DNA of 64,000 nucleotides from Octopus vulgaris (lineage: Eukaryota): contig OX597816.1 in NCBI GenBank assembly GCA_951406725.2, positions 89,900,001-89,964,000 on the forward strand. Direction: 5' to 3'. A program made the translations under genes and the position numbers. Positions 2,489 to 62,800 of this stretch are shown here, piece by piece. Within the stretch, counting starts at the first letter, position 1. Each line of letters starts with the position of its first letter. The notes beneath the pieces are model-generated. The model was not told the origin of the DNA. It saw nothing but the letters and a program-made list of their open reading frames with translations, and ran no database searches.

Positions 2489-2586
2489 CGCTTTCATTCC
2501 TTCATAAGTTACCATGAGAACATTTGGGTTGTCTTTAAATAAAGAGTAGAATTCTCGAGTATGCTTAAAATAATCACCGTTAGGAA
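2489..2586 (-). CDS. SULT-like gene A exon 3 (absent from ORF track)
   Basis: tttcag|IPNGDYFKHTREFYSLFKDNPNVLMVTYEGMKA|gtaaat; 98 nt. Confidence 0.88.
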
Positions 2587-5500
2587 CTGAAAAAAATAAA
2601 GGTTCATTGTAAATGATTTGGTTGTTCAAGCGGAACTTTCAGCATGGTAATAAGAATATTGTAGTGAATTGAATCAGAAAGAGAATATTACATTTGATAT
2701 ATACACATGTAATGTATGTTTGTGGGAATGTGCAATACGTGTGTGTGTGCGTGTAAGCATACATGTGTATATGTATGAATAGATACATAAACAAACAGAC
2801 AGACAAGATAGGCAGGTAGGTAGGTAGGTAGGTAGGTAGGTAGGTAGGTAGGTAGGTAGGTAGATAGATAGATAGATAGATAGATAGATAGATAGATAGA
2901 TAGATAGATAGATAGATAGATAGATAGATAGATAGATAGATAGATAGATAGATTTACAAACGAAATAAAAGAGTACTCAACACATTTTATGAAGGTGTAC
3001 AATTTAGAATCTAAATCTGTATTACTTAGTTTCACAGAAAGAAAAGCCTGTCTGATCGCTTGATTTCGTTGGTGCTAAATGATATGGCATCGACGGCTTC
3101 CATATAAATCAAATTGGCATTGAATTAAAGTTTAAATTTCGTTTCTATTAGTCAGATCGAGGTACAGCCATTAGTAAGATTACTATTATGTGCTGGCTGA
3201 CTGTTAAACGGCTACAGAATCGAGTGCAACATTAGTGAAAAATACTTGAATATTACCCCTTAATTTCATAAAGTATTTCAGTTGTCTGATTAGGAGTAAA
3301 ATGTATCCGGTTAAGTTTGTAGAAACATCGATAATAAGCGACAAATTAAAAACTGATATTTTCCTCTTCCTATCTTCCAGGGTGAAAGAGAACGATACCT
3401 CGTGTACACTAATTTCTAAATAAAGACACTCCTCCTAACGCCTCGTTGTAATGAGGTGCAATTTCTTCAAACATACACATAATTTACATTTGACGGATAT
3501 TTGTCCTCATCTTGTTTGTTGTTAATACAACGTTTCAGCTGATATACCCTCCAGCCTTCATCAGGTGTCTTGGGGAAATTTCGAACCTGGGTTCTCATTT
3601 CTAAGGTACTTTTCCTTTTTTTATCATATAGATACTGCGTCGACTCATCGAATTCCACCACTGGTAGCAATTCATCAAATTGAACTTGCAGTCCCGTTAT
3701 TTATTTTATCTCCAAATAGTTCTTTTAATTTCTCACCTCTCACTCTATCAAGCAGGATTGCTTTGCTGTTTTCATTCAACTCACCCTAATTGCAGATTTT
3801 ATTTTCGTAATCTTCTTCTCAATTTCGACACTTTTTTTATATTCTATCAAATTCCATATGTTTCCTCTTCTGTAATCCTTCCTTCTTCCATTTTTGATCT
3901 CTTCCGATGTTACTGGCATCGGTAACTCTTTCTTCTCTGTAGCATTTTCATTCGATGCTGCTAGTATCTCCCGTCTTTTTCCCTTTCGCTTCTGTAAATT
4001 CACTTTCTTCTCCGTGCTGGCTCCCCTTGATGTTGTTGGTCTCTCACACTAAGCCAACAACTCTTTTCTGCCTGCTTTTCTCTTTTTTTAGCTGACTCTT
4101 TGGTGGTGAGTCCGCGTCTCCTTCTCTCTTCTTCTTTCTCCTCCCCACCGTATATTGCTCCTCCACATTTTTTGTACTCTATTCGCTGTCTGGTTTTTGC
4201 TCCTCGACGTTTTGTTCCTTTTCCTCTCCCTGCTGCTCCTGTTCCATCACATCCTCGTCGTGTTTCTGGGGGCACCTTGCCTTCATGTGTCCCCGTACTC
4301 CACACTGGTAGCAGATGGGAGGTCTTCCCTCCACCACCACTCTTAATCTCACTTCCTCCGACAGTATGACCTCTTCTGAAATTTTATGTAAATCTTTTAA
4401 ACTTACCTGGACCGCCACCTCGAGGCCGTATCCCCATCAGTTTACCTCAGTCGTTCTTGTCACTTTAAAATCTTTCGATTCTTCCTCTGTGTCATACAAA
4501 ATGGCTGCCACCAGCCACGCCTCACCAATCTCTTGGGGTTCTCTGCCAATCCTTACTCGGGCCACACGTTTGCCACAGTAGGTTGGCAGTAGTACCCACT
4601 TTGATGACCTTAATGCCACAGTAGAGTGTTTTATCGCGTCTTGTTCAGTCGCGAACCTTACCTCCACTGGACCGTACTTTTTTCCTCTGGTATAGAACAT
4701 CGCAAGGCCTTTTATCTCCTTCAAACACTCTTTCAATGCTTCTACTGTCGCTATTTCAATTATTTTTTTCGTTTCCGTGGACAGCATTCTATACACTACT
4801 CTCCACTCAGTTGCATTCTCTGTCATATCTTGCAGCGGGGGTCAACCTCAGGCTGGTACCGTCCTTTTCGATAAGTTTGTTAAGCTGTTTCAACTTCTTT
4901 TCTTCCAATTTAACCTCTTGAACCTGTAGAACGTCTGCAGTTAAGCTTCTTCCAGTTGATGCAGCATAGCTGCCGACTGGTTCGCTTTCCGACGTTCCTT
5001 TTCTTACTATTTCACCCTTAAATAGGGAAGAAAACAAGTATAACAGGCAAAAATAACAGCAATAAACAGTTCAATCCAACAATTAGGTTAAACAGGCAGG
5101 TACGGGAGACCTTCAACAAATAATCAACAATGTAACTTACTCAGATCAAAAATGATTAAACAGCAAAACACATCATGGACTCGACCAAAGTGCGAACTGC
5201 TGACTACGTCACTCCGCTACCATTTATATGTAATGGTCCTGTCTATTCTCGTCAGAGGGTGGCCTACACTCGCCTCAACAGATAGAATTATTAAGGCGGC
5301 GAATAAAATGCTTATCGGTATTTCTTCTGCCGTTACGTTCTGAGTTCAAATTCCGCCGAGGTCGACTTTGCCTTTCATCCTTTCGGGGTCGATTAAATAA
5401 GTACCAGTTACAGACTGGGATCGATATAATCGACTTAATCCGTTTGTCTGTCCTTGTTTGTTCTCTGTGTGTTTAGCCCCTTGTGGGTAGTAAAGAAATA

Positions 5501-61100: not shown

Positions 61101-62800
61101 ATATATGTATATATATATATATATATATATATATATATATATATATATATATATATATATATGTGTGTGTGTGTGTATATATATATATATATATATATAT
61201 ATATATATATATATATATATATATATATATATATATATATATATATATATATATATATATATATATATATATATATATATATATATATATATATATATAT
61301 ATTGTTATATTTCGGAATGGTCATATTGCCAGTTTAGCCAATAAAAATCTTGCACAACAAATATTTAAACGTATATATATATATATACGCGAGAAAGAAG
61401 CAACAAGAATGGATAAGTTTTTAGTACAATCGTTTCATACAAAGACAGGCTTTATTAAAAGTTACAAAAATTGCAGCATATAAACGTGTCCGTACTCATC
61501 AGCTAAAATACATGTGAGTTCTCTAGACATCTTAGTGGTTGAGGCTATACTCATGAAGTAATGTAGATAATTAAGTAACATAAACAGATTTCCAAAGTTC
61601 ATTAAAGTTCTTTAAAGATGCACAGTCTTATCACAGATTTTTTAAAAAGTTTTAATAGCATCACAGAGAAGGTGACTTAATCCATAGTGTACATATGAAT
61701 TTCCAGAGATATGTACACTATGGATTAAGTCACCTTCTCTGTGATGCTATTAAAACTTTTTTAAAAATCTGTGATAAGACTGTGCATCTTTAAAGAACTT
61801 TAATGAACTTTGGAAATCTGTTTATGTTACTTAATTATCTACATTACTTCATGAGTATAGCCTCAACCACTAAGATGTCTAGAGAACTCACATGTATTTT
61901 AGCTGATGAGTACGGGACACGTTTATATGCTGCAATTTTTGCAACTTTTAATAAAGCCTGTCTTTGTATGAAACGATTGTACTAAAAACTTATCCATTCT
62001 TGTTGCTTCTTTCTCGCTTATAATCACCCCACATTACTGTATGGTTAAAACCGTATAGTTTTTGGTGCATCTAAGTTAAGTACCATATTCAAGTAAATTC
62101 ATTAAAATTGACTTGAATCTTTATTGCTTTTTGTTATATATATATATATATATATATATATATATATATGTATATATATATATATATATATATATATATA
62201 TATATATATATATATATATATATATATATATATATTAGGGGCCGAAACTGGACGTGGTTCGTCCTGATTATGTCTTTAGCCCCTGGATCCTATAAAGGAG
62301 CTGTTGAGGTCGCGAACCACGAAACGTGGTTGGAATTCCTCAAATAAAGTTCAGCACAACACTTAGTAAATCCATAGACCAAAACATGTATTCGAAGTTG
62401 GAACTTTTTGAACGTATTTTTCCTCTTTATTAATACGAAATAGACAGATTAAGTACGATTCTATAATTAAATTTTTAATTACGATTACTATGATGCTATA
62501 TATGGAATAAATTATCCTCCTTACAAGAGTTTAAAGGAATGAAGCAATTAAATTAACACTGGTGTAATAATATTTTCTTATAATACAATATTGTCAAAGC
62601 TTACCTGCTCCGGGATATGAATACATCAAAATATCATCAGATCTAATTTTTACTGTATTCAGTTTAGGTAAAGCAGTTGCAGCTATTTCTAAATAAAGAA
62701 TATTGTATCCTTTATATTGATAAACAGGCAAAGGCTTCCCGTCTTTGCCGAAAAATTGTTTAAAATTAATTCCGGTTTCTTTTATTTCTTCAGAAGCCAT
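46042..62800 (-). CDS. SULT-fold gene C, complete 5-exon CDS (62605-62800, 50634-50951, 48756-48853, 48223-48400, 46042-46148), 298 aa
   Basis: Exon lengths 196+318+98+178+107=897 nt with compatible phases and GT-AG sites. SULT motifs [54 protein letters not shown]. Confidence 0.9.
46168..47026. repeat. Long (TA)n/(GA)n compound microsatellite in gene C intron 4
   Basis: Direct observation. Confidence 0.95.
48223..48400 (-). CDS. SULT-like gene C exon 4
   Basis: caatag|[15 protein letters not shown]...CSFDKMK...TLYHS G|gtacgt; 178 nt. Confidence 0.9.
48756..48853 (-). CDS. SULT-like gene C exon 3
   Basis: ttttcag|[33 protein letters not shown]|gtaatg; 98 nt. Confidence 0.9.
49190..50150 (+). 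mobile_element. L1/Tx1-like LINE reverse transcriptase relic
   Basis: [33 protein letters not shown]; frameshifted. The 3' part resembles 41060-41220. Confidence 0.8.
50634..50951 (-). CDS. SULT-like gene C exon 2
   Basis: tttcag|GT TCA CAT TGG ... MKGE G|gtagtc; 318 nt. Confidence 0.92.
51260..51545 (+). mobile_element. Penelope-like GIY-YIG C-terminal fragment
   Basis: [18 protein letters not shown]...CKLCIAE...LLNSGHEI, similar to 34650-34830. Confidence 0.7.
51956..52040 (-). ncRNA. Type I hammerhead motif, left arm of 384-bp palindrome
   Basis: ctcc-CTGAAGA-gattgat...atccatc-GAAAC-atgt-GTA-gaag; one stem I mismatch. Confidence 0.65.
52127..52211 (+). ncRNA. Type I hammerhead motif, right arm of 384-bp palindrome
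   Basis: cttc-CTGAAGA-gattgat...atccatc-GAAAC-atgt-GTA-gaag. Confidence 0.75.
52676..53152. repeat. About 123-bp direct repeats with a 354-bp period
   Basis: tatatagcggtggtgta...ttctaat at 52676 and 53030. Confidence 0.85.
52883..52928 (+). ncRNA. Degenerate hammerhead motif (core C3 to A)
   Basis: cctgga-ATGATGA-cggg..ccca-GAAAC-atgcat-GTC-ttcagg; palindromic ACATGCATGT. Confidence 0.55.
53241..53291 (-). ncRNA. Type I hammerhead motif at left end of 5.4-kb inverted repeat (sense to gene C)
   Basis: Reverse complement of 58566-58616. Confidence 0.7.
58566..58616 (+). ncRNA. Type I hammerhead motif at right end of 5.4-kb inverted repeat
   Basis: agcttc-CTGAAGA-tttctcttgaat-GAAAC-ag..ct-GTA-gaagct; stem II closed by U-U. 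Confidence 0.7.
60435..60642. repeat. Foldback palindrome of SINE B segment centred on (CA)n(TA)n(TG)n
   Basis: atgttatggggacg... / ...cgtccccataacat. Confidence 0.9.
60943..61028 (-). ncRNA. Type I hammerhead ribozyme motif (sense in gene C intron 1)
   Basis: attttc-CTGAAGA-gaaggctgcaaa...tttgcagccttc-GAAAC-atat-GTA-gaaaat: 6-bp stem I, 12-bp stem II, palindromic ACATATGT stem III. Confidence 0.85.
61419..61508 (-). ncRNA. Type I hammerhead motif, left arm of palindrome (sense to gene C)
   Basis: Near-exact reverse complement of 61897-61987. Confidence 0.8.
61897..61987 (+). ncRNA. Type I hammerhead motif, right arm of palindrome
   Basis: ttttag-CTGATGA-gtac...gtat-GAAAC-gatt-GTA-ctaaaa. 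Confidence 0.8.
62605..62800 (-). CDS. SULT-like gene C exon 1 (coding)
   Basis: ATG at 62800, MASEEIKE...[15 protein letters not shown]|gtaagc. Confidence 0.9.

Follow-up and report, generated by a model that had tools for sequence, protein, structure and literature searches.

Pseudoenzymes are common in general, and retinol dehydratase is a case of the cytosolic sulfotransferase (SULT) fold running a non-standard net reaction. In the plant sulfotransferase (SOT) AtSOT18, side chains that contact 3'-phosphoadenosine 5'-phosphate (PAP) come from the equivalents of Arg130, Ser138, Arg257, Lys48, Thr51, Thr52, Trp53, Tyr193, Cys227 and Phe229, and main-chain contacts from the equivalents of Gly50, Lys258 and Gly259; Arg313, equivalent to Arg257, touches both the 3'-phosphate and the 2'-OH (PMC5482895). 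Mutation of the Lys48 equivalent, K93A, brings activity below detection, and the T97A mutant is inactive as well (PMC5482895). These residue equivalences are our own assignment, with numbering anchored to bovine SULT1E1 (P0034). SULT4A1 has no activity, yet it is conserved and can bind catecholamines (PMC1847840). It keeps the active-site His, the dimer motif and TYPKSGT, has Leu in place of Trp53 and a short loop 3/cap loop, and does not bind PAP (PMC1847840, PMC11275347). The locus described here is a stretch of 64,000 nucleotides of the 2.8 Gb Octopus vulgaris genome (G000:C3:89,900,001-89,964,000, hereafter the window), which carries three SULT-fold genes, A, B and C.

Genes A, B and C are all encoded on the minus strand in five exons apiece, with intron phases 1,1,0,1 in each. 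The spliced frames are open and encode 299 residues for gene A (counting exons 4-5, which are located beyond the window), 300 for gene B and 298 for gene C. Pairwise identities are 58–63% over the portions inside the window, and the description of three intact, diverged copies in the initial annotation is upheld. The motifs it quoted are all present on the minus strand: gene A reads SYPGAGSHW, PRFLNSHLP and RNPKAMLVT, gene B TYPGTGSHW, PRLMSTHLP and RNPKSSVVS, and gene C PRLLSAHLP and RNPKAMAVT. The sequence YHSG(A/K)V(D/E)TWKK, reported for B and C, is joined by YHSGKVDTWKK in gene A once exons 4-5 are added. Gly stands at Lys48 and His at Arg257 in each protein, and HSGxxD/ETWK replaces RKGxxGDWK. 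The phosphosulfate-binding (PSB) and HSG motifs straddle introns, and both of these junctions of gene C are present in spliced contigs.

The fold is recognizable throughout. The O. sinensis ortholog of gene A, P0012, matches Pfam PF00685 with an E-value of 7.7e-50 and 170 bits; P0014 scores 162 bits, and exon 2 of A, B and C each exceeds the 22-bit cut-off too. A SULT-fold model of P0012 calculated from 127 sequences has a predicted local distance difference test score (pLDDT) of 92.7 and superimposes on PAP-bound SULTs with a template modelling (TM) score of ~0.8 (Foldseek E 1e-20). An AlphaFold model built on 10 sequences scored poorly (pLDDT 59) and was set aside, and the ESM Atlas returned generic sulfotransferase clusters only. 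Six of the features that define cytosolic SULTs within PF00685 are found, and two, Lys48 and the Arg257 motif, are missing. Among ten paralogs, Trp53 and Phe229 are invariant, Tyr193 is kept in nine and is Phe in gene B, and the KxxxTVxxxE dimer motif occurs in all ten, from which dimers are predicted. The cap aligns over its full length with those of SULT1C2 and SULT1B1.

Across gene C, contigs from four of four runs (four studies, RNA being a guess of the software) are confined to the exons, a repeat aside. Two of these contigs, 866 and 870 letters long, link exons 2-3-4 and extend into exons 1 and 5, and the exon 1-2 and exon 4-5 junctions appear as loose ends in three of the four runs. Expression of gene C, the gene that this check covered, rests on the spliced contigs, as no run is on record as RNA; tissues are not stated for the runs, and contig depth cannot rank the genes. 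The ratio of nonsynonymous to synonymous substitution rates (dN/dS), estimated by the Nei-Gojobori method (NG86), is 0.25–0.29 among A, B and C and 0.07–0.47 in 33 of 36 pairs, those with estimable dS. Codon models over nine paralogs and 296 codons gave an omega of 0.31, with omega=1 rejected (log-likelihoods −5367.7 versus −5489.7). The family is under purifying selection, and the suggestion that it is a selected one stands, given a dN/dS that is not near 1 and an expressed gene C.

These data bear directly on the idea that the copies are duplicates in decay or artefacts of the assembly. A frameshift in exon 1 of one clade copy (C3:26.66, at 26.655 Mb, outside the reconstructed set) and a turnover of paralogs between species would fit decay. 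All 11 reconstructed genes, however, are open with GT/GC-AG introns, and orthologs occur in four named species. The open frames and the rejection of omega=1 rule out neutral decay and, together with the splicing data, already contradict this explanation, which is very improbable.

A nested Lys48-less clade

Residue frequencies were compared with an outside set of 328 domains from 293 proteins, composed of top matches and mollusc-rich rather than a random sample. Lys or Arg occupies position 48 in 291 of 296 outside domains against 0 of 40 clade domains, a pattern that is not chance. Arg257 is kept in 299 of 306 outside domains, whereas all 25 domains of the subclade to which the window genes belong have His; Asp134 is kept in 308 of 318, with Ala or Ser in window-type proteins, and Lys258 in 279 of 306. 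Position 106 behaves differently: Lys is present in only 73 of 317 outside domains and Asn in 169, while His at 52 is found in 106 of 195. Thus the real departures are Lys48, Asp134, Arg257, Lys258 and Asp263, and changes of Lys106 and Thr52, both common in Lys48-bearing relatives, were discarded as pseudoenzyme signs. The initial annotation had treated the loss of K106 as diagnostic, which fails because non-Lys is the usual state in SULTs that keep Lys48; its proposed check for the same substitutions in other SULTs therefore divides, with the Lys106 and Thr52 changes common and the losses of Lys48 and Arg257 as unusual as it had supposed. The outside exceptions at position 48 are five domains from three proteins. 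In the tandem-domain SULT-like proteins P0087 and P0111, outside the clade, Lys48 was apparently lost independently; one P0111 domain reads SYPGAGASW and adjoins a canonical domain.

A phylogenetic tree was calculated from 37 of ~350 proteins after 12 trait columns had been taken out, and was rooted on vertebrates. In it the 17 rows without Lys48 form one clade (support 99/96) nested among molluscan SULTs; inside it lie 13 rows without Lys258 (99/96), and nested within these are 7 rows with His257 (100/99). The residue changes are accordingly nested and stepwise, with the loss of Lys48 first. In step 1, Lys48 became Ala or Ser with RKG..GDWK intact, as seen in the C2 gene, Argonauta P0076 and clusters P0227 and P0228, the last two of which branch outside the Octopus-Argonauta pair. 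Step 2 changed Lys258 and Asp263 and brought in Arg141, with Lys260 common; step 3 replaced Asp134 by Ala or Ser; and step 4, Arg257 to His, defines the subclade of the window, with nine genes in this genome. The basal C2 gene (G000:C2:204857279-204900699), Lys48-less with RKG..GDWK intact, is the most conserved member. Living intermediates of all four steps (C2, C24, PTAG/RSG and window type) are present in a single genome, a record of an active site being dismantled or rewired.

Searches of the genome gave 21 matches to exon 2 and 52 to the Pfam family, both counts being lower bounds. Twenty-three cytosolic-type loci were found; PF00685 matches on C7, C10, C23, C17, C6, C15 and at C3:152 Mb lie outside the family count. 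Exon 1 was read at 18 of the loci, the other five being on C8 (four) and C19 (one), and 15 of the 18 are without Lys48: A, B and C, six at C3:79.43-79.57 Mb, those at C3:26.62, 26.66, 167.90 and 167.93, and single loci at C24:46.93 and C2:204.86. Lys or Arg48 is present at C8:42.92, C8:42.95 and C24:22.59. The same motifs occur in orthologs recorded for O. sinensis, O. bimaculoides and Argonauta hians. The assembly yielded no ortholog of P0007/P0013; the closest exon match reached 74% identity, and exon 2 61%. Clustered or word-limited searches brought up no named clade member from squid or cuttlefish, which is no evidence of absence.

In databases the clade proteins are labelled estrogen or phenol sulfotransferases and are recorded as ordinary enzymes, and the family was not found described in the literature. 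Literature searches gave no description of a Lys48-less octopus family in the available main texts, including those of PMC13669787, PMC8976471, 10.1101/340984, 10.1101/2023.04.12.536614, PMC4199319, PMC3733922, PMC6969939 and PMC13603450; supplements were outside their scope, and tissue tables may exist there. The sulfotransferases mentioned in the octopus papers covered by a term search are, in the portions available, other ones only.

Nucleotide pocket and possible functions

The PAP contacts of the AtSOT18 type are kept in A, B and C except for Lys48, Arg257 and Thr52, with Ser at Thr51 in the window proteins and Phe at Tyr193 in gene B. Arg130, Ser/Thr138, Trp53, Gly50, Gly259 and Phe229 stay, and Arg141 is gained. 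The initial annotation's claim that the PAPS-binding residues (those for 3'-phosphoadenosine 5'-phosphosulfate) have been lost holds for Lys48 and Arg257 and is overstated beyond them. It had also counted the change of K258 as a lost contact, but in AtSOT18 the equivalent residue contacts PAP through the main chain (PMC5482895), and a side-chain swap need not remove such a contact. In the nucleotide pocket 11 of 19 positions are identical across ten paralogs, compared with 59 of 277 elsewhere (p 0.001); the dimer motif has 9 such positions out of 10 and the acceptor side 2 out of 13, by lists of positions that we take to represent each site. Judged by its residues, the pocket appears rebuilt rather than dead.

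The interpretation that we prefer, and to which we give about an even chance, is that A, B and C are nucleotide- and ligand-binding pseudo-sulfotransferases. Without Lys48 and the cap Arg257 they likely no longer move sulfate from PAPS, as the AtSOT18 K93A mutant suggests by analogy, and they would act as binding proteins, predicted from the kept motif to be dimers. The rebuilt pocket would hold an adenine nucleotide; continued nucleotide binding is likely in view of the kept adenine and 3'-phosphate residues, the gained Arg141 and the whole 3'-phosphate site of the basal gene. A small ligand, likely of the phenol or amine type if SULT4A1 is a guide, would sit at His108, and paralogs probably differ in the ligand bound because acceptor-side positions vary among them. 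Ordinary sulfation would fall to Lys48-bearing SULTs elsewhere in the genome.

Several observations weigh against this interpretation. It is odd that 15 of the 23 loci found should be non-enzymes. The basal member retains RKG..GDWK and 86% identity between Argonauta and O. vulgaris. His108 (47 of 47 clade domains), Arg130 (47 of 47) and Ser/Thr138 (48 of 48) are kept, as would also fit a working enzyme. The pocket overlaps the structural core, so that its invariance, scored on assumed position lists, partly reflects the fold. Finally, results from AtSOT18 mutants do not transfer safely to molluscan SULTs, since T97A is inactive yet His is frequent at that position in the outside domains.

The main rival, possible though rather doubtful, is a reading in which the proteins are rewired but active PAPS sulfotransferases: Lys77, His52, Arg141, Lys260 and His257 would replace the lost contacts, the enzymes would be slower or narrower, and the expansion would mirror a diversification of acceptors. 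It draws on the retention of His108, Arg130, Ser/Thr138, Trp53, Gly50 and Gly259, on the stepwise history with surviving intermediates, and on the new basic residues. Lys77-Glu78 is fixed in 47 of 47 clade domains, and Lys260 is present in 29 of 38. Arg141 is tied to the absence of Lys258: it is found in 35 of 35 clade members without Lys258, in 0 of the 13 that retain Lys258, and in 4 of 318 outside domains. Yet Lys77 also occurs in 178 of 310 outside domains, alongside Lys48 in canonical molluscan SULTs, and is therefore no new substitute for Lys48; a basic residue that is clade-wide, rare outside and near the 5'-phosphate was looked for and none was found. Arg141 and Lys260 postdate the loss of Lys48, and their co-occurrence counts as one event because both arose on one branch. 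The abolition of AtSOT18 activity by K93A (PMC5482895) argues in the same direction.

Restoration of Lys48 by adenosine-to-inosine (A-to-I) editing was considered and is impossible from GGA/GCA codons. The His257 codon is CAT or CAC in all nine subclade genes, one such edit away from Arg (window 48227-48229, 19173-19175 and 16817-16819). The exon concerned shows zero differences in one spliced contig and one unlocated difference in each of two, and the codon state is probably the outcome of a single Arg-to-His transition.

The new fixed residues His257 and Thr263 are also what a different chemistry on the SULT scaffold could call for, such as the use of another adenine nucleotide or of sulfate taken off aryl sulfates with His108 as the catalytic residue. 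The adenine-stacking residues are kept with both phosphate-facing basic residues changed, and human SULTs bind adenylyl imidodiphosphate (AMP-PNP) too (PMC1847840). We regard this chemistry as distinctly unlikely: neither the neighbouring genes nor any fusion or tissue clue suggests a pathway, and the full 3'-phosphate site of the basal member argues for a PAP-type nucleotide. A broader version, also unlikely, would have most octopus cytosolic SULT-fold genes leave sulfation, the pocket being rebuilt stepwise through Arg141, Lys260, His257 and Thr263 for a different cofactor or reaction; this would be an octopod-specific family with new biochemistry and with its intermediates all in one genome.

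Cephalopods have crystallins derived from enzymes. The dimer motif, with its nine invariant positions and the clade-specific Lys266 and Glu271, would suit either a crystallin-like structural protein or a regulator acting only by dimerising with active SULTs. Both roles are improbable here, as neither needs the conserved pocket and the new fixed residues, and nothing in the analysis supports the structural role proposed by the initial annotation.

If the clade cannot sulfate, as the pseudo-sulfotransferase interpretation holds, octopus has less steroid and detoxification capacity than has been ascribed to it, and 15 of the 23 cytosolic-type loci found have some other role; if it can, a lysine thought essential in the SULT fold has been bypassed.

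Exon organisation and surrounding elements

Exon 1 of gene C (62605..62800, this and all exons below being on the minus strand) runs from the start to SYPGA-G, with the Gly codon of position 48 at 62609-62611. Exon 2 (50634..50951) encodes SHW, Lys77-Glu78, His108, Arg130, Thr138 and Arg141; exon 3 occupies 48756..48853; exon 4 (48223..48400) encodes the cap loop, with the His codon of position 257 at 48227-48229; and exon 5 (46042..46148) holds KVETW, the dimer motif and the stop. In gene A, exon 1 (7993..8191, to SYPGA-G), exon 2 (6150..6467) and exon 3 (2489..2586) are inside the window, and exons 4-5 follow beyond it at G000:C3:89899683-89899506 and 89890964-89890858. The NCBI model CAI9719613.1 fuses gene A to a single-exon VWA frame ~12.6 kb downstream (G000:C3:89878215-89877664); this is likely a prediction artefact, because gene A ends in a stop of its own and its ortholog in O. 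sinensis carries no such fusion.

Gene B comprises exon 1 (30283..30481, ending in TYPGT-G), exon 2 (22391..22708), exon 3 (20136..20233), two copies of exon 4 (19169..19349 and 16813..16993) and exon 5 (13529..13635). Two of its features go beyond the initial annotation, namely the GC splice donor of intron 2 (22389-22390) and the duplicated exon 4, whose copies differ at 4 of 181 bases. The second copy agrees with the NCBI O. vulgaris model P0023. The copies lie in a tandem duplication (window 15915-19726) in which 16670-17355 matches 19026-19726 at 94.6%, and a second repeat pair, 15915-16471 and 17351-17941, matches at 93%. Both copies are open; they may serve as alternative exons, stem from a recent duplication or reflect an effect of the assembly. 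In two B-like proteins of O. sinensis, exon 4 combines features of both copies.

A trinucleotide repeat stands immediately after the exon 2 donor in A, B and C (5978-6139, 22080-22369 and 50550-50619), inherited through the duplications. Intron 1 of gene C contains a long inverted repeat, with arms that measure ~1.8 kb (88%), as well as two palindromes (53222-58635, 61183-62235 and 51892-52275). Intron 2 of gene A holds an interrupted frame that includes a CCHC zinc knuckle (4182-4841, minus strand) and is likely a mobile-element remnant. Elsewhere on the minus strand are a transposase fragment (31639-32043; Pfam DDE_Tnp_1_7, E 2e-13) and a GIY-YIG endonuclease fragment (11820-12230), which at E 0.0017 is under the Pfam cut-off and is likely a retroelement remnant.

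Comparison with known sulfotransferases

Retinol dehydratase (PDB codes: 1fmj and 1x8j), at 20% identity, shares the SULT fold with the octopus proteins. PAP is bound in the 1x8j structure, so that the enzyme, which the initial annotation named as a repurposed SULT fold, sets no precedent for loss of the cofactor site. With the cytosolic SULT1 and SULT2 enzymes and the plant SOTs (PF00685), the octopus proteins have in common the fold (TM ~0.8), the length, His108, Arg130, Ser/Thr138, Trp53, Gly259 and KxxxTVxxxE. They differ in having Gly or Ala at Lys48, His at Arg257, DTW or ETW for GDW and Ala or Ser at Asp134, and in the gain of Arg141.

The parent group is found in molluscan SULTs of the GTHW, LNSH and RKG type (bivalves, gastropods and BBB86724.1 of Watasenia), which are the source of His52, Asn106 and Lys77. 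Unlike the octopus clade, they keep Lys48 (103 of 104) and Arg257 (109 of 109). The nearest functional analogue is SULT4A1, with which the octopus proteins share a conserved SULT fold without demonstrated activity, the active-site His and the dimer motif. The sequence features that define SULT4A1 are not found in them, as Trp53 and a full-length cap are kept. They differ from it further in the loss of Lys48 and in being a family of several genes, which is nested among molluscan SULTs. The octopus proteins have arrived at a non-standard state by a route other than that of SULT4A1.

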